Part shown: piece after piece, positions 7,981 to 61,436 of the stretch
How positions within the stretch are numbered: the stretch's first letter is position 1
Layout of the letters: each line of letters opens with the position of its first letter
IMG/VR virus record: IMGVR_UViG_2778261035_000005
Strand: one strand, 5' to 3'
DNA length: 64,000 bases
DNA from: a virus
Lineage: Duplodnaviria; Heunggongvirae; Uroviricota; Caudoviricetes
Made by a program: the position numbers and the translations under genes
Notes under the pieces: generated by a model
What the model was told of the DNA's origin: nothing
Database searches by the model: none
The model's input: only the letters and a program-made list of their open reading frames with translations

Positions 7981-8184
7981 TTAAATAGAATTTTGAAGTT
8001 TTCCGATTAATGCGCTTAAACGTAAGTATTCACGTTTGCGCTTGCAATCTCGCTTGCTGTTAAGCAAATCAGAAAACGTAAAATTTAATTGGTCGCGTTG
8101 CGCGATTAAATCATCGATTAATTCCAGTTTATAAGCGCGATACTTTGCGCGATATTCCGCGCGGATCTTGTCATAGCTGACCAT
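7981..8184 (-). CDS. hypothetical protein (about 68 aa)
   Basis: ORF; start moved to internal ATG 8184 with aaggag RBS, because hairpin 8202-8220 overlaps the track start. Confidence 0.45.
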   Translation of the reverse strand: MVSYDKIRAEYRAKYRAYKLELIDDLIAQRDQLNFTFSDLLNSKRDCKRKREYLRLSALIGKLQNSI

Positions 8185-8201
8185 TTTTAAAGCTCCTTTA
8201 A

Positions 8202-8220
8202 AGCGCCCATAGTGGGCGCT
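8202..8220. terminator. intercistronic hairpin (same sequence as 7706-7722)
   Basis: agcgcccatagtgggcgct repeated verbatim. Confidence 0.5.
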
Positions 8221-8232
8221 TGATTCCATTAA

Positions 8233-8883
8233 TTACGCTTTGAAAGCATCAGCTAAATAATTGTAGAAATCATTTTTAATGAAGCGATATTGCTGAGTAC
8301 CAGCTTTCGCGCTCCCAGCTCCTTTGACTTTTTCAACAAGTCCAAGACGTTCGCAAAGATTGATCAACTGGTTGGCTTGAGTATAGCCAGCGTCCAATTT
8401 AATTTCACACGCTTTTTTAGCTTCATTCATTAAATCGAAAACAGCGCCATTGGTGAACGTGTCGATCTCGTCGTTAATCATATCGATTAAAGCGAATACA
8501 CGAGATCCTGACATATCAGCGATGGAATAAACGCATTTACCAGATTTAATTGATTTAACCAGATAAACCAGTTTTTCCAGAGAATAACTATTAGTCATTG
8601 CATCACGGAAAAATACTTCTGGCGCTTGTTTGCTTGCTTTAATCGCATAGTAGAAAACAGAGCATAATTTTTCGTCTTCTACTGCGTTTACGACGTTGTT
8701 GATGAAGTAAGCAAGTTTAGTGGTCGCAGCTTGCATATTTGCTTTGTCTGCTTTAGTGTGCGTACCATTTTTATAATGTTCGTTATATGTTTGAGTTGCC
8801 AGATCTGCTTTTTCGCGCAGTTCATCGGATACAATAGATGCAGCTTCAATGATGGATTTTTTAGAAATGATAATGTTAGCCAT
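8233..8883 (-). CDS. hypothetical protein (216 aa)
   Basis: ORF with RBS aggaaa. Confidence 0.55.
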   Translation of the reverse strand: MANIIISKKSIIEAASIVSDELREKADLATQTYNEHYKNGTHTKADKANMQAATTKLAYFINNVVNAVEDEKLCSVFYYAIKASKQAPEVFFRDAMTNSYSLEKLVYLVKSIKSGKCVYSIADMSGSRVFALIDMINDEIDTFTNGAVFDLMNEAKKACEIKLDAGYTQANQLINLCERLGLVEKVKGAGSAKAGTQQYRFIKNDFYNYLADAFKA

Positions 8884-9166
8884 GATAATTTTTCCTTATG
8901 TAAATTTAAAATTTATTGTCGTTAGCGTCTTCGCTTTCGACGAGTTCAATTATCGATACGCGAAAAAAGATTGCAAGTGTTTTTTTTAAATTTTTTGCAG
9001 GGATGAAAGTCCTAGAAATAAAAGCGAGATCGTCGAAGGTGTTCCCTAAATAAATAATCGATTGCGGCTTTAGACCTTATATATATTTAGGTTATTTGAT
9101 TTGTAGATATAAAGAAGTGATGTGAAAAATAATAACCGGACTTAGCCGGTTATTAACCTTATAGAT

Positions 9167-9475
9167 TTATTGAACAGACTCTACAGCCTTACGATTGGTG
9201 TCAAATAGCGCATCAACGAACTGTGCCGATGACTCGCTAGATTCGCAATCCAACATTGCCCGTTCTTCATTTGCCACTTTCTTACACAGTTCCACATTCT
9301 CACCTATCGCTTTTCCTGCTTTTACGGCTGCCGAAAATTGATACATGCAAACTGATACATTCTGAGACGTTGAGCACACGTCATTCATCAGCGACTGAAT
9401 GACAGGCTTATAGTCCATTGCATTTGCCGCAACTGAGCAAAGTAAAAATAATGGTGGTAACAATATCGATTTCAT
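9167..9475 (-). CDS. secreted Cys-rich small protein (102 aa)
   Basis: N-terminal signal peptide MKSILLPPLFLLCSVAANA; 6 Cys in mature part. Confidence 0.55.
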   Translation of the reverse strand: MKSILLPPLFLLCSVAANAMDYKPVIQSLMNDVCSTSQNVSVCMYQFSAAVKAGKAIGENVELCKKVANEERAMLDCESSESSAQFVDALFDTNRKAVESVQ

Positions 9476-9478
9476 AAC

Positions 9479-10003
9479 TCAAAAAGGCAAAATTCGTTCA
9501 ACCCAATCGAACAAAACAACTATTTTTCTACCGTTCTCGACACGTAGTGTAACCTGACAAGCATCTGCGCCTGCTGACACCCCCTCAATTTCACGGCCAT
9601 CCGCCATGTACACCCTTATAGATTTGTTTGCTTTGTAGGCTTGGTTGCAAATTGCAAAAAAATCGCGGCGTGATGGCCGATTATCGACATAATCAGGGTG
9701 AACTGTTAGTCGACCTTTGAAATCGTGAGCGATACTGTCAACCACACCTGATTCAATTGTACTAATGCGTTCAAGTGGGAGCCTTATACGATTTTCTTTG
9801 TCAAAAGGGGCTGGGCAAAGGTCAACTTTGTTACGAGATGGCATGAGGCCATAAACGTACATGCAAAACGCCTGGCCATCTTCGAGAGTGACCCTTACAG
9901 GAATTTGTTCTCTGCGCCAGAACATCAGTAGTTTTTCAACGTTAGTGTAATCTCGCGGCCAGAGTTCAGCTTGGATACCGTAGGTAATATCTTTGGTTGT
10001 CAT
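9479..10003 (-). CDS. hypothetical protein
   Basis: ORF; start trimmed to ATG 10003 to avoid overlap with upstream lipoprotein gene. Confidence 0.45.
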   Translation of the reverse strand: MTTKDITYGIQAELWPRDYTNVEKLLMFWRREQIPVRVTLEDGQAFCMYVYGLMPSRNKVDLCPAPFDKENRIRLPLERISTIESGVVDSIAHDFKGRLTVHPDYVDNRPSRRDFFAICNQAYKANKSIRVYMADGREIEGVSAGADACQVTLRVENGRKIVVLFDWVERILPF

Positions 10004-44940: not shown

Positions 44941-45609
44941 ATGACCAAGATCTTTGTGGTTGGCGGCACAAAGGGCGGGCCTGGCAAATCCACCGTTGCC
45001 CAGCAAATTGCCGTTTGCCTGAAAGTCAAAAAGAAGAAGAAGGTTTATATCACTGATATAGATATTCAGCGCACGACAACAAGCTGGTGTGAAGACCGTC
45101 GACAGAACGAAGACCTTGAGCTGATTCCTTTTGCATACGTTCAGGATGACATCATTAAGCACCTAAAATCGCTTCAGGGTAGAGCTGAGTTTGTAGTGGT
45201 AGATGCTGGTGGCTTTGACTCCGAAATTCAGCGACAAGCGATGCTGATGGCCGACGTTATCATTATCCCGCTTCGTCCTAAGCGTCGTGATTTGAAATCT
45301 CTGCGTGACATCGATCCTATTATCGACAATGTTCGTAATGTAAACGATAAAGTGAAGGTCCGCGCGGTCATGAACCAGTGCCCGGCTTTGCCATCACAAG
45401 TGTCTCGCATTCTGGCGGCTAAAGAGATTGTCGAGACGTTTGGCATCGAGTCTGCGCCAGTCAATCTATATAACCGCAACGTCTACGATGATGCGGAAGA
45501 GTCTGGTCGTTCTATCTTTGAAATGACCGGTAGCGAGCGCGACAAAAAGGCGGAAGCCGAGTTTGAAGAATTTGTAGATTATCTGTTGAGTCTGGAGGAA
45601 GAAGAATAA
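44941..45609 (+). CDS. parA: ParA-family partition ATPase
   Basis: Deviant Walker A GGTKGGPGKST; 222 aa. Confidence 0.85.
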   Translation: MTKIFVVGGTKGGPGKSTVAQQIAVCLKVKKKKKVYITDIDIQRTTTSWCEDRRQNEDLELIPFAYVQDDIIKHLKSLQGRAEFVVVDAGGFDSEIQRQAMLMADVIIIPLRPKRRDLKSLRDIDPIIDNVRNVNDKVKVRAVMNQCPALPSQVSRILAAKEIVETFGIESAPVNLYNRNVYDDAEESGRSIFEMTGSERDKKAEAEFEEFVDYLLSLEEEE

Positions 45610-45968
45610 TGTCCATGAAAATGGGTGACCTAGCAAAGCGCAAAGAGCCTGATGCACCGGCCAAGAACACAACTCCTTTGCGCCAACCAGTCAGACCACA
45701 GGGACGCCCGACTCGTGGCAAAGAGAAAATTAAAAGCCGCACAATGTCACTGGAAGACGAATACTTCGAACTGCTGGAGATGATGAAGTTCATCCCTCGC
45801 TTCGAGAAATTCACCCGCTCTGATGTGATTCGTGCTGCTATTTTCCATCTTGCGGAGAAGACACCGCAGGAAATCGAGGACATCGTAAAGCTGAACGAGG
45901 CGATCACAGCTGCCGATGTCACGATGCGTACCGATGAAATTAAACGCGAGTTGATGAAGAAAGGTTAA
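45609..45968 (+). CDS. RHH centromere-binding protein (ParG-like)
   Basis: Basic disordered N-terminus + C-terminal RHH-like segment; ATGA overlap with parA. Confidence 0.55.
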   Translation: MSMKMGDLAKRKEPDAPAKNTTPLRQPVRPQGRPTRGKEKIKSRTMSLEDEYFELLEMMKFIPRFEKFTRSDVIRAAIFHLAEKTPQEIEDIVKLNEAITAADVTMRTDEIKRELMKKG

Positions 45969-45971
45969 TAA

Positions 45972-45997
45972 TGTGGGCTGTCTAGCCCACATTATTT
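45972..45997 (+). terminator. terminator after partition operon
   Basis: aatgtgggc-tgtcta-gcccacatt then TTTT. Confidence 0.6.
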
Positions 45998-46019
45998 TAA
46001 TTAAAGTGGAGTGATAATT

Positions 46020-46772
46020 ATGCATTCGTTAGTATTTGCATTTAAAAACATACTCAAGAATGTTATAAACATACTAGGGATGTTAAATATTTTTTTGTCT
46101 GTGAGGGTGAGGAGAAAAGATATAAAAGATAAATTAAAGGAACTTAACAAAGAAAAAGAACAATTAAAAAGCGAAGAAATTATTATTGATTTATACAAGA
46201 AAAAACTCGCATCTAGCAAGGGGAAAGCTAATGATAAAATCAAAGGAAAAATAATTCACTATATTATTGCTAGAGAGTTGGGGAATGATCCTGATAATGA
46301 AGATTTGCGACATAATCTTTTTACAAAGATAAAAGAATCAGAAGAACAGGTTGAAGTTCTGGTTCATCAAAGAGAAGTAAGTGAGCAGGCGAACAAAAAA
46401 GAAACGGTTGTCAATTTATTTTTATTGTATGAAAAAAATAAATTGTTTAAAGCTAAGGGGTTGGCTGTGTTTCTTATAGTTATAAACTTAATTATAGTTG
46501 CGACTCTCGATCTTCCAGCTTGGTCATTGATTATAAGTTTTTTTATTCTCTCTTTGATTATGTTGAAAGATCAGATACTTACTATTCGTGTCTCTAAAGG
46601 ATATTTTGGCACAAGTGCGTATGAAGCGGTTCAATTGCTTAAATTCATCAGAGAAAATTCAGACAAATTTGACTCAGATGATAATGACGGTAGCCCACGA
46701 CGGATATTGAATCCGAAGGGAACAACAAAAAAATCAGACAACCTATTCGATAAAGGGTGGCAAAATGTTTGA
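46020..46772 (+). CDS. AT-rich gene: membrane protein (about 250 aa)
   Basis: N-terminal TM, K/E-rich coiled-coil segment, two more TM helices; composition visibly more AT-rich than flanks. Confidence 0.55.
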   Translation: MHSLVFAFKNILKNVINILGMLNIFLSVRVRRKDIKDKLKELNKEKEQLKSEEIIIDLYKKKLASSKGKANDKIKGKIIHYIIARELGNDPDNEDLRHNLFTKIKESEEQVEVLVHQREVSEQANKKETVVNLFLLYEKNKLFKAKGLAVFLIVINLIIVATLDLPAWSLIISFFILSLIMLKDQILTIRVSKGYFGTSAYEAVQLLKFIRENSDKFDSDDNDGSPRRILNPKGTTKKSDNLFDKGWQNV

Positions 46773-47187
46773 CCTTGACGCCATCACTAAGTTCTTAAAT
46801 CAGTGTTTTGATCTACTTTTGCTCAAGCAGCCTTTAAGAACTGTTTTCGGAATACTGATTGGTTTCATTATTTTTGTTTTTGTTTACACGTTTAGGTTTG
46901 CGATAGCTCAAGATTTTTATGAAATAGATGGCGTGCATTACGCTGCATGTTTCGTCATCGGTGTTTTAGTTGTTCACACAAGAACATTTTTTGACGTTAT
47001 CAAGGGCACCGCAGTTGATGAAGAAATAGATAGTATGATCAGAGTTATTACGAAGCAGCCACACCTATCTAACCATCAAAAAAACATAATGATTGCTGAA
47101 ATACTTCAAAAAGAAATTGCAGCCATAAGTCAAAAGAGATTGGATAAAGTTGCACAAGAAATAACGGAGAAAAAGACAACTGATTAA
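46765..47187 (+). CDS. AT-rich gene: small membrane protein with two TM helices
   Basis: Overlaps stop of previous gene; hydrophobic segments LRTVFGILIGFIIFVFVYTF and VHYAACFVIGVLVV. Confidence 0.55.
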   Translation: MFDLDAITKFLNQCFDLLLLKQPLRTVFGILIGFIIFVFVYTFRFAIAQDFYEIDGVHYAACFVIGVLVVHTRTFFDVIKGTAVDEEIDSMIRVITKQPHLSNHQKNIMIAEILQKEIAAISQKRLDKVAQEITEKKTTD

Positions 47188-47202
47188 TTTAATTACCTGT
47201 TT

Positions 47203-47252
47203 CTGTATATAAATAATAAGTAACTTATTAAATATATATACGGAAGCAGGTC
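47203..47252. repeat. ~50-bp AT-rich palindromic element, copy 2
   Basis: ctgtatataaataataagtaacttattaaatatatatacggaagcagg. Confidence 0.75.
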
Positions 47253-47358
47253 TTTTAAAAGACACCCACCAGAACAACTCCCTTCCGTTTCCACTTCCAA
47301 AAACTGCCACCAGTCGCTATCATCCGCTCATTGTGATAAGTAAGTAACTACCTACCAG

Positions 47359-48108
47359 GTGAGCCACATGAGCCAAATCTTTTTCGATACCATCGACAAC
47401 AACCAGTACGACTTCATGACAGAGTGGAATACCGCTGTTATGGACAAGTGGGTTGCTGAAAACATTGGTTTGTCGCGCTGCAAAGACGAGGCTGAACTCT
47501 TCGAGACGAAGTGGTTTGATTACCGCGACATGCATCCTCTCATGGCCACCTGCCTTTTTACGGAGGCATACAAACGTCAGTACTCAAATATCATGCTGAC
47601 GCACGGTCGCGAACACTTTGAAACAGCTCCGTTCACCACCGGGTTAAAACGCCTGCCTTATCAGGAGTTGTCGACTGCCAATAAAACGTCTCTATGGAAA
47701 GCACGCCAGTTTGCTGACCGCTATTGCTGCTCATACGACTACTTTATCTCCACCGTTCTTTCCGCAGCTGCACGACGGCTGTGGGACAAGCTGCCGCGCC
47801 CACAGCATTTATGGCAGCCAGAACTGATTGAGATATTTGAAGAGAAATTAGCCAGACGCGCAACAACCCGTCTGGATGACTCTCTGGTTAGCTTTAAGCA
47901 TATGGGAGACATGCAGTTCAACCCGATTCAGGAAAGCTATTTTGAATGGATTCTGGAGCGTTTGCGCACCATCCCTCGCAGTAAGCGCATACGCGCAATT
48001 TTCTCCGCTATCTGGCTAATGGAAATCGTTCCAGAGCGCCTTATTTCCGCCCACTTTCCAGAAGAACTGGAAGAAGCACGGCGGTTTATTGATCCCCTAT
48101 CTAATTAA
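47359..48108 (+). CDS. hypothetical protein (249 aa), possibly replication-associated
   Basis: ORF (GTG 47359 or ATG 47368) immediately upstream of helicase. Confidence 0.5.
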   Translation: MSHMSQIFFDTIDNNQYDFMTEWNTAVMDKWVAENIGLSRCKDEAELFETKWFDYRDMHPLMATCLFTEAYKRQYSNIMLTHGREHFETAPFTTGLKRLPYQELSTANKTSLWKARQFADRYCCSYDYFISTVLSAAARRLWDKLPRPQHLWQPELIEIFEEKLARRATTRLDDSLVSFKHMGDMQFNPIQESYFEWILERLRTIPRSKRIRAIFSAIWLMEIVPERLISAHFPEELEEARRFIDPLSN

Positions 48109-50755: not shown

Positions 50756-51892
50756 ACCAGTATTAGTCACGTACACATTGACCGAAAATGATTTAACTTC
50801 TGTGTTGAAGTTGTCAGTCATTACCGCGAGGTAGGCATTCTTGGTATCTCTGAATTGCTTCAGTATGATTTGAACGTTATCGGTGCAAACAAACGAGGTA
50901 GCCAGATTGCCTCCTTTCTCTGAAAAATCCTTCAGGAAGGTGCAGTCAACTTTGCCATCATTAGCGGTGAAGGTAGCATCATCACCCTGCCAGGTAAATG
51001 TAGCGTTAACGCCCTTATCAATGGATTTAGCAATAAGTCGCTGGGTGGCGGATTTTGTTTTGGCTTTGGAAGCCGGCGCTCGATATTTGCCGCTTTCTTT
51101 CAGTTCTGCAATGTAATCACAGCCATTTTTATCTTCTTTATCACAAGCAGCCTGATAAAGCTCAGCTGCTTTTTTATAGTCTTTTTTAACCCCTTCACCA
51201 TACTCATACATAATGCCAAGATTTGTCATGGCATCGGCGTTTCCGAGTTCAGCAGCTTTTTTATACCACTTAATTGCTTCGGCATCGTTGCGTTTAACAC
51301 CTAAACCGTCATCGTATAAGGTGCCTAATGCGAACATGCCATCTGAACTACCTTGATCCGCCGCTTTTTTGTAATAAGTAAAAGCTTTTTTATAACTCTT
51401 TTGTACACCTTTACCATATTGGTAATACGCACCAAGAAGGTAGCTAGCTTTAACATACCCGGCATCAGAGGCTAGATTGAAGTATTTAATGGCGAGCGCA
51501 TGATCTACTTTACCAAGCATCCCCTTTTGATAAATAGCACCAAGATTGTTATAGGCTCTACCTTCACGAGCATCTCCCGCAAGTTTGTAGTACTCAACTG
51601 CTTTATTTAAGTCTTTATCTACACCCTCGCCAAATGTGTACATAACCCCAAGTGCATAATATGCTACTTTGTCTCCCTTTTCTGCAGCGAGATCAATCCA
51701 CTTCTTGGCCTCAACTACATCCTTATCAAAACCATTGATACCATCAAAATAATTTGTCCCTAACTCACTTTGTGCTGCGGTATCCCCTGCGGTAGCGGCT
51801 TCTATCAGCGTTTGTTTATTGTCTGCGTTAACGAATCCAGAGCTAAAAAGCAAAGTTAATGCCAGCAACGATGAAGATTTTATGTATTTCAT
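50747..51892 (-). CDS. secreted Sel1-repeat protein
   Basis: Signal peptide MKYIKSSSLLALTLLFSSGFVNA, then ~8 Sel1-type repeats and a ~110-aa C-terminal domain. Confidence 0.8.
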   Translation of the reverse strand: MKYIKSSSLLALTLLFSSGFVNADNKQTLIEAATAGDTAAQSELGTNYFDGINGFDKDVVEAKKWIDLAAEKGDKVAYYALGVMYTFGEGVDKDLNKAVEYYKLAGDAREGRAYNNLGAIYQKGMLGKVDHALAIKYFNLASDAGYVKASYLLGAYYQYGKGVQKSYKKAFTYYKKAADQGSSDGMFALGTLYDDGLGVKRNDAEAIKWYKKAAELGNADAMTNLGIMYEYGEGVKKDYKKAAELYQAACDKEDKNGCDYIAELKESGKYRAPASKAKTKSATQRLIAKSIDKGVNATFTWQGDDATFTANDGKVDCTFLKDFSEKGGNLATSFVCTDNVQIILKQFRDTKNAYLAVMTDNFNTEVKSFSVNVYVTNTGSN

Positions 51893-52125
51893 ATTTTTTG
51901 TTCTGTTGATATAGGATGAACAGTTTAGACGCGGCAAGTGTCAAGTGTGCGAAAAATGGTACTTAAATTTAGTTAATATGTCAGCTTTGTTGATTTAGTT
52001 TATGGTCGGTAAAGTTACTAGGAAACTAATAACCATAAGAAATAGTACGTCATTTAATTATTGTGGCACTGCTCGTGTTTTGATTAACTAATACCTGCGA
52101 TAAATATAAATAAAGGGAAGCCAAC

Positions 52126-52539
52126 ATGAGCAAAAATAAGCTGATTTTAACAGGAGCTTTATTGTCTTTGTTTGCTTTAGTGGGGTGTAAGCCTACAGAC
52201 GAGAAGGCTATTGCTCTGGGCCAACAAGCAATTGCGGATGATATGAAAGATCCCACGTCGGTGATGTTTAGGAAAGATAAGTTTGTCAGGACTGATCATG
52301 ACGATGGGAGTGTGACAGGCTTTGTGTGCGGAGAATTGAACGCCAAAAATGGCTTTGGTGCATACGTGGGCTATCACTCATATGTTGTTGAACTCGAAAT
52401 GAAGCCAAAGGGCATGTTTTCGAAAGGGGTGGTATACAAAATCCTATCGAAGTCGTTGGCACCTAATGATCCTCATGACTTACAGCGTTATAAGCAGGTC
52501 TACAGAAAGATGTGCAACAGTGAGGCTGTAGCTCATTAA
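52126..52539 (+). CDS. lipoprotein
   Basis: Lipobox LVGC in MSKNKLILTGALLSLFALVGC; RBS aaggga. Confidence 0.65.
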   Translation: MSKNKLILTGALLSLFALVGCKPTDEKAIALGQQAIADDMKDPTSVMFRKDKFVRTDHDDGSVTGFVCGELNAKNGFGAYVGYHSYVVELEMKPKGMFSKGVVYKILSKSLAPNDPHDLQRYKQVYRKMCNSEAVAH

Positions 52540-56888: not shown

Positions 56889-56963
56889 GATGGTGTAGCT
56901 CAGCGGTAGAGCAGTTGGCTGTTAACCAACTGGTCGGTGGTTCGAATCCACCCACCATCGCCA
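56889..56963 (+). tRNA. tRNA-Asn (anticodon GTT)
   Basis: Cloverleaf read by hand: acceptor gatggtg/caccatc, anticodon loop ctGTTaa, T-loop ggtggttcgaatccacc, 3' CCA. Confidence 0.85.
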
Positions 56964-56965
56964 AT

Positions 56966-57041
56966 GCCGGTTTAGCTCAGTTGGTAGAGCACCTGCCTTG
57001 TAAGCAGGATGTCAGCGGTTCGAATCCGTTAACCGGCACCA
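56966..57041 (+). tRNA. tRNA-Thr (anticodon TGT)
   Basis: acceptor gccggtt/aaccggc, anticodon stem cctgc/gcagg, loop ctTGTaa, T-loop ttcgaat, 3' CCA. Confidence 0.85.
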
Positions 57042-57254
57042 ACACAACAGGAAAGAGCATTGAGAACCGCCGAGACTGCCCTGTTTGAAGCGTAAGTCCG
57101 TGCAAACGTCATACAGTGCTCTTTTCGTTGTGGTGAATGCGGCTAAGCGCACGCGGGGAAATGGTTATATTGATCCTTTGTGATGACTATTGGCTCCGTC
57201 CACGGTGGATAACCAGCCAAAGGACACCGGGAAGCACCCGGCACCACAACAATT

Positions 57255-57341
57255 GGAGAGTAGGGAGCATGGTGCTCAAGCGGTCTTGAAAACCGTCCCA
57301 TTGCGCAAGCGATGATGGTTCGATTCCATTACTCTCCGCCA
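57255..57341 (+). tRNA. tRNA-Ser-like (anticodon TGA, long variable arm), D-arm atypical
   Basis: acceptor ggagagt/actctcc, anticodon loop ctTGAaa, variable-arm hairpin cattgc-gcaa-gcgatg, T-loop ggttcgattcc, 3' CCA. Confidence 0.6.
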
Positions 57342-57496
57342 GACACAGCGTTGAGCGGTTTGGCCTTTTAATCACCCAGATTAAGACTCCGCTAACATAA
57401 ACCAGACCGCTCAACGCTGTGATAGACAATTACGGCAGACGTTCTTAACCATAGCTTGCTAACATCCTAGCAACACTTTTTTTCAGCGCAAAATTC

Positions 57497-57521
57497 AAAG
57501 GGGCTTCGGCCCCTTTTTGGC
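57497..57521. terminator. bidirectional rho-independent terminator
   Basis: aaaggggcttcggcccctttttgg. Confidence 0.75.
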
Positions 57522-57525
57522 TGGG

Positions 57526-58806
57526 TTAATTAAAACCGAATGAATCAAGTTCTGCTTTTAATTTATCGACCATTTTTTCAACTTCAACCACAATTTCGCC
57601 AATCACCTTTTCTTTGTGTTGATTAGAGCTAAGTTCAAAATAGGCGTTATATAACGCATAACGAGACAGAAAATTTCTAATCTCATTAGCGGGTCTAATG
57701 GTGTAGCCATCGGTTAACACGATATCGGTCTGTCTAGAGTGCTTCTCGTTGAGTTTTATTAGCCGCTTTATCTGTTTTTCATCCTTGAGCACTATCACTT
57801 TGTTAGCTGCAATTTCAAGCTCCCAGCCGACAAAATAACGCAGCGTAGAATTTAATTTAGCCACTTCCTCGGCTGCAATTTCCATTTTCAGCTCAATGTA
57901 GTTTCGCATATGCATAGGTAGGTCATTAAATCTTTGCAGCAAATGTTGTCGGCAGGGGTTGTTGTAAGACCAAAGAACTGCAAACGTAAGCCTATGATAA
58001 CAGCTTATCGCATTGGTATTACAGGCCGAATCACCAACAATCATGCGATCAACATAAAACTCTACGTCTTTTTGGTATTCTTTATTGAATATATCAGCGG
58101 CATAGGTGTCCAGGTAATGAACTTTAGATATTGCATCTTCAAAGAAAAGTTCATTTTCGAAGAAGTTGTATTTGTTCAGGAGACGATAAAGTTTCTTTGC
58201 GTCGTAGGTTTTGCTATTGTCGACATTAAGACCAAAAATAGCAATCAGCAGACTTACTTTTGGACTAATGCTGTTGCGCAGTTGTTCTATGTAAGATCTC
58301 TTTTCACTATCCGCAGATGACGGCAGATAGAAGTCTTTATCTACATAATTTAGAATTAAAATAATGTGGTTAACATACTTAATATAAACAGGGTTTTTTG
58401 TTGCATAGTAATAAACGCCCTTGACGACTTTTATATTCAATTTCAAATTGTACTGACTATCATCCAGTAAGGTTTTGTTAACATCCTCAAGTAATTTATT
58501 ATGCTGTTCAAGTAATATGCCGTACCATTCCTTAAAAGAAGATTTTTTCATTTCAAGAAGCGAAGCCGCCGTCAGCCTGGTCGCTCTCATTGCCGCCTTT
58601 GCACTATGCCTTGCCTCATAAGCGGCCCATGCTGTGGCTAAAAAGGCAAGTGAAGTAGCAAGCGTACCTATAACCTCTACGTTTTCCTTGACGGTATCCC
58701 AGAAAATAATCATCACTGTCCCAAGTATGAGGATTAACAAAACAGGCATTTTATCAGTGTCTTTGGTTAATTTTGAAACTGAATGATACCTAATCGACCA
58801 TACCAT
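57526..58806 (-). CDS. AT-rich gene: membrane-anchored protein (426 aa) of unknown function
   Basis: Two N-terminal TM helices then ~330-aa soluble domain; no motif recognised; composition visibly AT-rich. Confidence 0.6.
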   Translation of the reverse strand: MVWSIRYHSVSKLTKDTDKMPVLLILILGTVMIIFWDTVKENVEVIGTLATSLAFLATAWAAYEARHSAKAAMRATRLTAASLLEMKKSSFKEWYGILLEQHNKLLEDVNKTLLDDSQYNLKLNIKVVKGVYYYATKNPVYIKYVNHIILILNYVDKDFYLPSSADSEKRSYIEQLRNSISPKVSLLIAIFGLNVDNSKTYDAKKLYRLLNKYNFFENELFFEDAISKVHYLDTYAADIFNKEYQKDVEFYVDRMIVGDSACNTNAISCYHRLTFAVLWSYNNPCRQHLLQRFNDLPMHMRNYIELKMEIAAEEVAKLNSTLRYFVGWELEIAANKVIVLKDEKQIKRLIKLNEKHSRQTDIVLTDGYTIRPANEIRNFLSRYALYNAYFELSSNQHKEKVIGEIVVEVEKMVDKLKAELDSFGFN

Positions 58807-58955
58807 TTCAGCTAGTTTAAAGCTGTCTTGCCGGTTCTAGTGTGTCAACCTCACAAAGCCATTTCTGCTTAGTAACCAAACACATTAAATAGGTAATGAC
58901 TCACCTATTCATTTTAGCTATAGTCACGACACTTACTCACTTGAAAGGACTCTAT

Positions 58956-59081
58956 ATGGGAAACAAACGTAAACAGGCGCGTCGCGCAGCTCGTCAGGCA
59001 GTGAAGTCAAAGCCACGCATCCACGGCTACGAAATTGACACAATCATCGTTAATGAACAGCAGTTGCACGAGGTGAAGTGA
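58956..59081 (+). CDS. possible small basic protein
   Basis: ATG 58956 with RBS aaggac; ATGA overlap with glutaredoxin gene. Confidence 0.3.
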   Translation: MGNKRKQARRAARQAVKSKPRIHGYEIDTIIVNEQQLHEVK

Positions 59082-59326
59082 TGAAAGTCGTTATCTACGG
59101 ACGAGATAACTGCTCATACTGCAAACGTGCGGTCGAGCTGGCGAAGCAACTAAAGGGACATGGCTACGGTGATTATGAGTACATAAACATCACCACTGCC
59201 GGTATCGATAAGGAAAAACTTAGCGAAATTGTTGGTAAACCGGTAGAGACTATCCCCCAGGTGCTGATCGATGGCCAGCCGATTGGCGGATACACAGAGA
59301 TGGCATCTTTCGTAAGTTTCTTATAA
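59078..59326 (+). CDS. glutaredoxin-like protein
   Basis: CxxC active site (YGRDNCSYCKRA) and thioredoxin-fold size (82 aa). Confidence 0.75.
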   Translation: MMKVVIYGRDNCSYCKRAVELAKQLKGHGYGDYEYINITTAGIDKEKLSEIVGKPVETIPQVLIDGQPIGGYTEMASFVSFL

Positions 59327-59364
59327 GTAAAAGCCACATCTTTGTACATATAGTACATATAACA

Positions 59365-59388
59365 AAAAAGGCCCATATGGGCCTTTTT
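59365..59388. terminator. bidirectional terminator
   Basis: aaaaaggcccatatgggccttttt. Confidence 0.75.
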
Positions 59389-59510
59389 CATAACTTCTAG
59401 CTAACCACTACAGTGGCTTAAAGACCACTTCACCCTTGCGTTCAGCTTCAGCTTTAGCAGTCATGAATCGTTTGATCATTTCGACTTTGCTAGCATGGAT
59501 AGTTTTAAAA

Positions 59511-60065
59511 TCAATCTTCCCTTTGTTTTGGGTAGTGTTGTGTTCGTATCGCATAGGAAGCTCCGTCATTTAAATAAGTTAGGCCACGCTCTTGTGTAAA
59601 TCTCTTCACATATCTCTTGTATGTGGCCATCAGTTCTTCGCGTTCTGCCGCAAAGAATAAAATCTGTATGCCTTCATTGTCGGCAACTTTGAGCATTAAG
59701 TCAACTAAAGTACCGTAAAGGTATTGAAGTTCACCTAAAGTAAGATTAAAAGACCCTTCGGGTTTGGCAAATACGTTAATTGGCTCTTCCGCTCCAAGAG
59801 CGACATTCTGGAGCTGTTCTTGCTGCCTGTCAAGTTGAATCATGTCCACAAAACTAACGACAGATACACACAACCCATAAACATCAGCACCTAACATATT
59901 ATGCATAGTTTCTGCGGCAACAGGATCTAAAGAAGGAGGGCAAAAGACTAAACGGTATCTAGCCTTACGAGCTTCATTGCCAGAGAAAACAAAGTCTATA
60001 TCTAAATATGACAGATCACCCGGCAATGAAGCCAAACCAGGTGTAACCAACTTATGCAAGTGCAT
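59511..60065 (-). CDS. hypothetical protein (184 aa)
   Basis: ORF. Confidence 0.45.
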   Translation of the reverse strand: MHLHKLVTPGLASLPGDLSYLDIDFVFSGNEARKARYRLVFCPPSLDPVAAETMHNMLGADVYGLCVSVVSFVDMIQLDRQQEQLQNVALGAEEPINVFAKPEGSFNLTLGELQYLYGTLVDLMLKVADNEGIQILFFAAEREELMATYKRYVKRFTQERGLTYLNDGASYAIRTQHYPKQRED

Positions 60066-60201
60066 CTGTCTCGAATCCCTCTTTATTAGTATAAGTTGTC
60101 TTATTGTACCCTACCAAACGTTTATATGCATTGTTATGTATTATTTTGATTTTCAATATTACCTCCTAGAACGAAGGGTAGATTTCAAAAAACGCACCCT
60201 C

Positions 60202-60332: not shown

Positions 60333-61436
60333 ATGAAAAATAGCTTTGACAGAGCACGCGCTGCGGAGAACACCTCAAAAGAGGCGATTGAGTATCTCGA
60401 AAGAGCATCTCAAATGCAGGCCGTTATGATCTCCCAGGTCAGCAATGACATGAGATTCTCGGACGCATTCATGTTATTCACTCGCTTATCTCTGCTGATA
60501 ACAAGACGTCGGCCAGAGATCGCTGTTCATTGTATTTTGATACATGTTTTGCCGCACATTGCCGATGTAAAAGTAAGTGATATTAATAGGTTCATGGTGA
60601 ACCAACTGGTCAACCCACTAATACTGGATGGCAAAATTGTTATGGGTCGCCGCGTTTTCTCTCTGATGAAGCAGTTCCTCAGCTGGTGCGCCTTCCAGGG
60701 GATGATCGACGTGTCACCGTTAAACGATATGTCACTTAACAAAGTTGCCGGTGGCGCAAAGCCCACACCTCGCGAGCGGAAGCTAACCGACGCAGAGGTA
60801 TGGGTGTTCTGGAATATATGGGACTACTTCAATGTGTGTGCTGGTACAAAATGGGCGGCCAGGCTATGTCTTGTATCCGCAAGACGACCTGACGAAGTAC
60901 TGCGGGCTAAAAAAAGTGAGTTCAACCTCCAGCGTGGGGTTTGGAATCAAGGCAAGAGAAACAAATCAGCCCGTGAGCATTCTCTGCCTTTAAGCACATT
61001 AATGCGCACATGCATTGAAGAGTTATTCGAATATGGTAAAGGCAGCCAGTGGCTTGTGCCTTCGAATAAAAAAATCGGGAAAGATCTTCCGATGTCTAAA
61101 GTGGCAATAGCCCAGGCATTACGCCGTATCCTGGAACGACCAGAACTGATGGAGCTTGAGCCATTTACACCACGAGATTTGCGTCGTACTGCGCGTAGTT
61201 ACTTCCCAGCATTAGGCATAAGCCAGGAGGTATCACGTAAAATCATGAACCACAGTCTTGAGGGGATAGATCGGGTCTACGACCGGCACGATTATATGGA
61301 CGAGATGCGAGACGCCTTAGAAAGTTTCTCGACGTACATCGCATCAATCGTAGAGCAACCGGATTTAGACGAAATTGACCACAAATTCAAGGGAGATCGT
61401 CTATCGACAGAGCTTATTCGTGTAAATTTTTCATAG
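60333..61436 (+). CDS. tyrosine integrase / site-specific recombinase
   Basis: C-terminal catalytic motifs ...PRDLRRTARS... and NHSLEGIDRVYDRHDY (H-x-x-R ... Y). Confidence 0.75.
   Translation: MKNSFDRARAAENTSKEAIEYLERASQMQAVMISQVSNDMRFSDAFMLFTRLSLLITRRRPEIAVHCILIHVLPHIADVKVSDINRFMVNQLVNPLILDGKIVMGRRVFSLMKQFLSWCAFQGMIDVSPLNDMSLNKVAGGAKPTPRERKLTDAEVWVFWNIWDYFNVCAGTKWAARLCLVSARRPDEVLRAKKSEFNLQRGVWNQGKRNKSAREHSLPLSTLMRTCIEELFEYGKGSQWLVPSNKKIGKDLPMSKVAIAQALRRILERPELMELEPFTPRDLRRTARSYFPALGISQEVSRKIMNHSLEGIDRVYDRHDYMDEMRDALESFSTYIASIVEQPDLDEIDHKFKGDRLSTELIRVNFS

Follow-up and report, generated by a model that had tools for sequence, protein, structure and literature searches.

The abortive infection (Abi) proteins AbiC and AbiP of lactococci were described in 1992 and 2004, respectively, and neither has a known mechanism or a recognizable fold. 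Both join an N-terminal membrane anchor to a helical extramembrane domain, the anchor consisting of two transmembrane (TM) helices in AbiC and of one in AbiP (PMC13064643). AbiC lowers production of the phage major capsid protein and leaves DNA replication unaffected. AbiP disturbs the switch from early to late transcription, requires both its TM anchor and its domain binding RNA and single-stranded DNA, and turns toxic in the presence of the phage major tail protein (PMC13064643). We studied a gene in the virus record IMGVR_UViG_2778261035_000005 (Caudoviricetes), a stretch of 64,000 nucleotides that we call the window. An original prediction, made from the sequence alone, had proposed that an AT-rich open reading frame (ORF) of 426 amino acids (aa) near a tRNA cluster encodes a single-gene abortive infection factor. 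Based on sequence comparison, its product belongs to a diverged clade of the putAbiC (PF16872) superfamily, of which lactococcal AbiC and AbiP are the founding members. This product probably acts against phages on its own, as a membrane-anchored protein of the AbiC/AbiP type, and is encoded by a moron of an SSU5-like phage-plasmid that would be expressed during lysogeny. We favor this reading of homology and context because three independent lines point the same way: the putAbiC homology, the defense cargo of the replaceable slot that holds the gene, and the recurrence of the gene as a moron in P2-like and lambdoid prophages. The proposed abortive infection role is thus supported. It would not represent a new kind of system, but appears to be a diverged and currently undetected clade of a known, mechanistically unsolved Abi family.

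The Pfam model PF16872 (putAbiC, “putative phage abortive infection protein”) matches residues 124–199 of the window protein with 20.1–20.2 bits (E about 9e-4), and this is the most conserved soluble segment of the protein. The model also matches 7 of 19 close relatives at E<0.01 (best 1.5e-5), and the homologue P0065 has a precomputed match. We searched a set of 5.8 billion proteins by sequence and by profile, and 1.84e9 representative proteins by profile. The latter search returned just 90 relatives (E 1e-43 to 1e-4), so the family is small. When 54 full-length remote relatives and the window protein were scanned, PF16872 was found in 50 of the 55 sequences (best 1.2e-13), and the remote relatives that are named carry the NCBI label “putative phage abortive infection protein”. 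An hhalign comparison of the window clade with the canonical putAbiC clade gave a probability of 100% and E=8e-47 over 398 columns. By this alignment, the homology to canonical enterobacterial putAbiC proteins extends over the full length and includes the TM hairpin. The canonical clade, in turn, connects to the lactococcal proteins: six of its members match the PADLOC model for AbiC (best 1.3e-6) and four match that for AbiP (best 1.1e-4). The AbiC-like protein of Lactococcus lactis p275A (LL275_pA087; PMC6458302) matches PF16872 at 32.2 bits and aligns with the canonical clade in the same core (hhalign, E=3.5e-5).

Like lactococcal AbiC (Prf, pTN20) and AbiP, the window gene is a single gene on a mobile element. 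Its product shares with this group two N-terminal TM helices, a subsequent, mostly alpha-helical extramembrane domain without a recognizable enzymatic fold, and a putAbiC core of ~60–75 aa (Y..Y..HI..IL...D..F / Y...LR..I......IA / FF motif). However, it is longer than AbiC (407 versus about 340 aa), its similarity to AbiC and AbiP is confined to the core and transitive via the enterobacterial putAbiC clade, and it occurs in Gram-negative bacteria on a phage-plasmid or prophage rather than on a dairy plasmid. The canonical enterobacterial putAbiC proteins (PF16872-positive, 430–490 aa, e.g., Pectobacterium WP_104212255.1) have the same layout of TM hairpin, stalk with an LLEQH motif, core and C-terminal part, but are only ~17–23% identical to the window protein. 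Moreover, the named Pectobacterium members are chromosomal, whereas the window clade occupies slots of temperate phages. In the canonical clade, near-invariant positions are H83, G118-H119, S123-P124-Y125-M126-R127, Y130-H131, K134, S155, R158-S159, N163-D164, N172, Y187 and H199. The window clade retains H83 (80%), Y125, R158 (49%) and the FF motif, whereas G-H119, S123-P, M126-R127, Y130-H131, S155, N163-D164, N172 and H199 are replaced. We rejected a further lead, the “Abi_C” domain of a 2026 paper on SadR, as a coincidence of names: this is the C-terminal HEPN domain of AbiJ (PF14355), an unrelated family in which SadR and AbiJ are cytosolic HEPN RNases with an R-phi-x3-5-H motif (PMC13590631).

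The ORF of 426 aa exists as the maximal ORF at 57526..58806 on the minus strand, as predicted. The most likely coding sequence is shorter (57526..58749, minus strand, 407 aa plus stop; phrog_18168, E=2e-150). Alignments of 19 and of 65 homologues have a conserved N-terminus, MP(V/I/F)L..., that corresponds to Met20 of the 426-aa ORF and to the ATG at 58749. We prefer this start because the Met-Pro is conserved in all alleles and clades and because the upstream ATG at 58806 lies inside a predicted sigma-70 promoter (CTGAAA-17 nt-TATCAT, 58783..58811, minus strand), in the spacer that separates its -35 from its -10. Close alleles retain this block, which is the sole conserved promoter-like element in the window lineage. 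The upstream ATG was also rejected on the grounds that alleles with 37% identity begin exactly at the Met20 position, without such an extension. Likewise, we rejected the RefSeq start at Met32 (58713, 395 aa), which is not the conserved Met-Pro and would delete TM helix 1. The ribosome binding site (RBS) is weak or absent.

Two N-terminal TM helices had been proposed, and both are present. TM helix 1 (aa 1–17, MPVLLILILGTVMIIFW, 58699..58749, minus strand) has a Kyte-Doolittle value of 2.6 and is a helix in the AlphaFold2 (AF2) model; the hydrophobic N-terminus after Met-Pro is kept in all clades. TM helix 2 (aa 24–43, VEVIGTLATSLAFLATAWAA, 58621..58680, minus strand), with a Kyte-Doolittle value of 1.6, contains many small residues, and no other part of the family is as well conserved. 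A hydropathy scan of the 407-aa protein found no hydrophobic segment after TM helix 2. It is followed by an Ala-rich, basic juxtamembrane “stalk” (aa 44–96, 58462..58620, minus strand) that carries the conserved LLEQH motif (H83) and, in the model, prolongs TM helix 2 as a single helix of residues 24–96. The invariant positions of the window clade itself cluster in TM helix 2 (T32, T39, W41, A43) and in this Ala/Thr/Ser-rich helix (A46, S49, A56 and others), and, by its conservation, the membrane-proximal helix clearly matters. The putAbiC core (aa 124–199, 58153..58380, minus strand) contains Y125, D137, Y141, Q156-L-R158 and the F196-F197 motif, and the pI of stalk plus core is about 9.1. 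The fast-evolving C-terminal half (aa 216–407, 57529..58104, minus strand) is helical with a small beta subdomain and has low column conservation. Because the loop between the TM helices is acidic (WDTVKENVE) and the segment after TM helix 2 is basic (YEARHSAKAAMRATR), the positive-inside rule would place the helical domain of ~360 aa in the cytoplasm. The N-terminal membrane anchor and helical extramembrane domain that characterize AbiC and AbiP are therefore both present.

The AF2 model, which was built from a 65-sequence alignment (pLDDT 84.5, pTM 0.73), consists of the TM hairpin, the long helix of aa 24–96, a helical core and C-terminal helices with a small four-stranded element. A sequence profile search of the Protein Data Bank (PDB) gave no match, and no solved or BFVD structures of the family were found. 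The protein had been described as lacking recognizable motifs; indeed no catalytic Pfam domain was found, but the description missed the near-threshold putAbiC match. The suggestion of a HEPN, nuclease or NTase fold did not hold, as motif and structure searches found no such fold or motif. For HEPN in particular, there was no Pfam or PADLOC match, no structural neighbor and no Rx4-6H motif; the canonical clade does have an R127-x3-H131 pair, but its spacing is non-canonical for HEPN and the pair is absent from the window clade. An alpha-pore-forming toxin or holin of the ClyA type was considered and rejected (best Foldseek E=0.06–0.25, TM-scores 0.11–0.15, not significant). So was a type III toxin-antitoxin system resembling ToxIN or AbiQ: around the gene there are no tandem repeats and no Rfam antitoxin families. 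Since no RNA, repeat or protein partner was found around the gene, the description as a single-gene system stands.

The gene is real and under purifying selection, because it has many homologous clusters and because pairwise dN/dS among five alleles is 0.14–0.36. Among the 5.8 billion proteins, the sequence search retrieved 70 clusters of homologues and the profile search 102. Enterobacterales are the source of all of these; most lie on contigs of 105–115 kb, and nearly all are labelled “hypothetical”. Intact homologues of 395–445 aa occur in eight genera, namely Escherichia, Klebsiella, Enterobacter, Salmonella, Cronobacter, Citrobacter, Pectobacterium and Cedecea. By tblastn, the gene is present in 140 PLSDB plasmids (119 of them non-mobilizable), and a close allele occurs in 8 of 5,426 complete E. 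coli genomes, each time on a plasmid of ~110 kb. Searches of a collection of 50,697 phage records with tblastn and blastn did not match the gene; in deposited SSU5-like phages the slot is empty or filled with other cargo. The poor RBS, the ambiguous start codon and the purely hypothetical database annotation might raise the suspicion that the ORF is spurious or decaying and lies in AT-rich intergenic DNA. However, the intact homologues across eight genera, the dN/dS values and the confident AF2 model make this extremely improbable, and conservation and selection effectively refute it.

Selection is uneven along the gene. Omega is about 0–0.06 for aa 1–75 (TM hairpin and stalk), 0.07–0.31 for aa 76–215 (core) and 0.21–0.69 from aa 216 to the end. 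This pattern fits a conserved membrane or effector module combined with a rapidly diversifying recognition module. In comparisons of the window allele with Enterobacter and Salmonella alleles, dS is 0.04–0.06 in the first 75 codons and 0.3–0.8 downstream, a discontinuity that suggests recombinational mosaicism, or module exchange, within the gene.

The second line of evidence is the location of the gene. The window derives from an SSU5-like phage-plasmid, because it is 100% identical over 1.5 kb around the gene to the E. coli plasmid pWP4-S18-ESBL-07_2 (NZ_AP022089.1, 110 kb, non-mobilizable), its wider region is 98–99% identical to Escherichia phage Cyrano, and Salmonella phage SSU5 is a relative. 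We compared positions 53–63 kb of the window to sister elements by blastn. Both flanks are 96–98% identical, but homology ends at 57518–57521, inside a terminator on the tRNA side, and resumes at 59054–59092, at the grxA start. The intervening 1.5 kb (57519..59060) is thus a replaceable accessory cassette; in Cyrano, CMS-2020a, pAVS0968-B and Escherichia albertii p3RM15114 it either cannot be aligned or differs. Cyrano has only a gp49/66-family gene in this slot, and CMS-2020a and Klebsiella pJN2-26 have another antisense ORF of 302–304 aa with an RHxIVHN motif. In pAVS0968-B, the E. albertii plasmid and a K. pneumoniae plasmid, the slot holds alleles of the same family in the same orientation with 37–38% identity; overall, the family alleles swapped into the slot are 33–40% identical.

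We retrieved 80 IMG/VR loci via grxA and could catalog the slot in 68. The AbiC-like family occupies it in 19 of these 68 loci, always on the minus strand, and is the commonest antisense cargo. Plus-strand genes of backbone type also occur, encoding PhoH (38 loci) or gp49/66 (25 loci). The alternatives include a lipoprotein (15 loci), an HNH-effector-like protein (10 loci; PADLOC PDC-M68A, 3.7e-19), the RHxIVHN protein (8 loci), AbiH (2 loci; Pfam, 2.6e-62), AbiGi with a 394-aa partner (2 loci; Pfam 4e-25, PADLOC 5.5e-47), PDC-S67 (2 loci; 5.9e-36) and a 529-aa multi-TM protein (2 loci). On the plus strand, six loci have a Tad2-like anti-Thoeris gene (PF11195, 5e-26; e.g., L094:4988-5533). Because this gene occupies the slot in some sister elements, the slot mixes defense with counter-defense cargo. 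The RHxIVHN protein (302–312 aa; L004:3125-4033, L003:2823-3737 and L090:4011-4949, all minus strand) has a conserved RH(T/I)IVHN(S/G)G sequence (Rx4H, HEPN-like) and no Pfam or PADLOC match; it is a candidate for an unannotated Abi protein of the HEPN type.

Another variable slot (59305–60183) separates grxA from the integrase gene. No cargo is present there in pAVS0968-B and E. albertii. The slot is occupied by a 202-aa ORF together with a YafO-family toxin (5.4e-22) and a membrane protein resembling colicin E1 immunity proteins in CMS-2020a and Klebsiella elements, and by an unannotated antisense ORF of 184 aa in the window and Cyrano (59511–60065, minus strand, in the window). From these comparisons, the region from the tRNAs through grxA to the integrase emerges as a two-slot hotspot for defense and counter-defense. 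We found no account of the slot of the AbiC-like gene as a hotspot in the papers that could be searched. AbiH, PrrC, PD-T4-3 and others, but not AbiC, are listed in a DefenseFinder survey of SSU5 elements, and a paper on defense by a K. pneumoniae SSU5-like plasmid ascribes it to a restriction-modification (RM) system and not to the AbiC-like gene.

The third line is recurrence. A homologue with 57% identity (P0049) lies antisense between the tail genes S/R and the baseplate gene V of a P2-like prophage, i.e., in the orf30 locus, which is one of three P2 regions holding horizontally acquired genes (PMC3091744, PMC6823313). Another homologue, from Cedecea (P0064, about 45% identical), is antisense between a lambda-P-like replication gene and the RusA/Q (nin/Q) region of a lambdoid prophage. 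A Pectobacterium homologue (P0047) is chromosomal. Wherever it occurs in a phage, the gene stands alone in antisense orientation, flanked by wide intergenic gaps. The window slot closely resembles the P2 old/tin, Z/fun and orf30 and P4 psu-int hotspots, which likewise consist of an AT-rich, antisense, replaceable cassette between conserved backbone genes and have mutually exclusive cargo that includes known Abi genes; the orf30 slot even holds the 57%-identical homologue itself. It differs in that the backbone is that of an SSU5-like phage-plasmid and that the slot lies between a tRNA cluster and grxA. The paper on the P2/P4 hotspots covers the old/tin locus, not the S-V slot (PMC9122126).

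By analogy with AbiP and AbiC, the protein would be made constitutively in the lysogen and become active only upon infection by a heterologous phage. Its C-terminal half, which evolves fast, might then sense a phage product, and the TM hairpin, the TM helix 2/Ala-rich stalk and the basic core might execute a block, either by sequestering nucleic acids at the membrane or by perturbing the membrane. Expression of middle and late phage genes and synthesis of capsid protein would fail, and the infection would abort. Divergent alleles (33–40% identity) in the same slot on near-identical backbones would be expected to differ in phage specificity.

Several observations weigh against an AbiC/AbiP-type anti-phage function. 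The window protein scores below the PF16872 gathering threshold of 22 bits, and neither it nor the 19 relatives match the PADLOC models for AbiC or AbiP, in both of which respects it differs from AbiC and AbiP. Its clade aligns with the p275A protein in the core segment only weakly (E=0.03 over 51 columns). Most canonical polar residues are gone: from the set of H83, Y125, R127, H131, R158, N163, D164, N172 and H199, only H83, Y125 and R158 are present. The window protein has N, L, P, K, F and N in place of R127, H131, N163, D164, N172 and H199, and across its clade these six positions are N, L, variable, variable, F and N. Because most of the near-invariant polar residues are replaced, the molecular activity of the window clade may differ from that of the canonical core. 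Moreover, one screen found no protection by a lactococcal “AbiC-like” protein that shares 38% identity with AbiC (PMC11381338). Regarding the context, Tad2-like, PhoH and gp49/66 cargo means that location alone is no proof of defense. Finally, the predicted promoter is a match to the consensus, and promoter-like sites in the region are no more numerous than expected from shuffled sequence.

The lost polar residues also bear on other explanations. Because nearly all of the canonical invariant polar residues are lost while TM helix 2 and the Ala-rich stalk are almost frozen, the window clade could be a functionally re-invented AbiC, which would act as a membrane-only, one-protein sensor-pore whose hypervariable C-terminal half reads phage structural proteins, or as a decoy that neutralizes host defenses of the AbiC type, to the advantage of the phage-plasmid. 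We consider this rather doubtful. It is still less likely, in our estimation, that the gene has no defensive role and is instead a counter-defense or other lysogenic-conversion factor. Examples would be a degenerate AbiC-like decoy that co-assembles with host putAbiC-type proteins and neutralizes them for establishment of the phage-plasmid, or a membrane protein for plasmid maintenance or host physiology. Such a role would agree with the loss of polar residues in the clade, with the presence of canonical putAbiC proteins in Enterobacterales chromosomes such as that of Pectobacterium, and with the Tad2-like, PhoH or gp49/66 genes that the same slot can carry. However, homologues are conserved over their full length, including the membrane anchor, and purifying selection acts strongly on both the TM region and the core. 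In addition, the antisense layout with its own predicted promoter and its own terminator is typical of genes expressed in the lysogen, not in early infection, and the antisense alternatives in the slot are mostly Abi-type defense genes.

Among functions that do protect the host, superinfection exclusion at the inner membrane has to be weighed. DNA entry or early steps of incoming phages, perhaps related SSU5-like or other siphophages, would be blocked and the cell would survive, without suicide. The strong conservation of TM helix 2 and the juxtamembrane helix is compatible with such a block, as are the position of a single gene at prophage moron sites typical of sie genes and the failure to find a toxin-like or enzymatic domain; the many allelic types in one slot would fit exclusion specificity as well. 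Nevertheless, AbiC and AbiP, to which the protein is homologous, interfere with transcription switching and capsid protein production once the phage DNA has entered (PMC13064643), and a cytoplasmic domain of ~360 aa whose C-terminal half evolves fast is easier to reconcile with sensing inside the cell than with a block at the envelope. Therefore, exclusion is a credible though unlikely alternative, and abortive infection of the AbiC/AbiP type remains the explanation that we favor.

Since this diverged AbiC-homologous clade resides in phage-plasmids and prophages of E. coli and Klebsiella, it is amenable to coliphage collections and genetics. The commonest antisense cargo of the slot (19/68) escapes PADLOC, tools that apply Pfam thresholds and DefenseFinder surveys of SSU5 elements. 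Given that SSU5-like elements are linked to clinically important lineages of Salmonella Typhi, Shigella and Klebsiella, the slot could affect outcomes of phage therapy. If the clade is indeed a functionally re-invented AbiC, its alleles with 33–100% identity in one slot on isogenic backbones would constitute a ready-made specificity library.

We now note properties of the surrounding region. In the order of the plus strand, it contains a DNA ligase gene, four small ORFs, the tRNA-Asn, tRNA-Thr and tRNA-Ser genes, the AbiC-like gene, a small ORF, grxA (59078–59326), the 184-aa ORF and the integrase gene (60333–61436). The three tRNA genes (56889–57341, plus strand) adjoin the AbiC-like gene, as had been stated. 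The claim that the gene is antisense was also correct, the ligase, small ORFs, tRNAs, grxA and integrase all being on the plus strand. The described AT-richness is likewise real: the GC content of the gene is 0.379 versus a window mean of 0.458 (standard deviation 0.034), within the lowest 2.5% of windows of the same size.

The gene had further been described as isolated between two strong bidirectional terminators, and this holds for one side. Directly 3′ of the gene is a bidirectional intrinsic terminator (57490..57518, both strands; AAAAA-GGGGC-CGAA-GCCCC-TTTGAATTTT), whose hairpin AAAAAGGGGC-CGAA-GCCCCTTTGAATTTT folds on both strands with a z of about -3. Judging from its sequence, it serves both the tRNA operon (plus strand) and the AbiC-like gene (minus strand); the replaceable cassette has its left breakpoint here. 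No strong terminator was found adjacent to the 5′ end of the gene, where there is just an AT-rich hairpin. A second good palindromic terminator is located at 59365–59388, past grxA, so the two terminators bracket the gene, the small ORF and grxA rather than the gene alone. The AT-rich hairpin is an inverted repeat (58886..58911, core TAGGTnnGTnnnTACCTA) that is conserved upstream of all alleles we examined, even those with 37% identity on other backbones. The repeat and the -35 of a plus-strand promoter-like site (58896–58924) overlap. As a terminator the repeat is not strong; it may function as an operator or a (recombination) boundary element.

The small ORF (58896/58956–59081, plus strand, in the region 58883–59081) is basic (MGNKRKQARRAARQ...) and overlaps the grxA start. 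Its DNA is 81% identical to the phoH 5′ end and upstream region of a Klebsiella sister plasmid, and the ORF also matches the PhoH cluster of the IMG/VR loci at the N-terminus; it looks like a phoH remnant after a deletion. Within the tRNA cluster, between tRNA-Thr and tRNA-Ser, a near-threshold Rfam match to the gammaproteobacterial small RNA STnc100 occurs at 57109–57277 (plus strand; 44.1 bits versus a gathering score of 47, E=1.5e-7). Immediately behind tRNA-Ser, ahead of the bidirectional terminator, is a 20-nt inverted repeat (57344–57421, 95% complementary, 38-nt loop).

Elsewhere in the window, the most AT-rich island is at 45601–47600 (GC down to 0.32). Its plus-strand ORFs 46011–46772 and 46765–47187, just downstream of ParA-like (44941–45609) and small ParG-like genes, overlap and encode two small proteins with C-terminal or internal hydrophobic helices, and the island is a candidate for another accessory or defense module. 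Other AT-rich patches (GC 0.36–0.39) are at 51201–52200 and 8001–9600, the latter with minus-strand ORFs at 8233–8883 (216 aa) and 9167–9475 (102 aa, with an N-terminus resembling a signal peptide).

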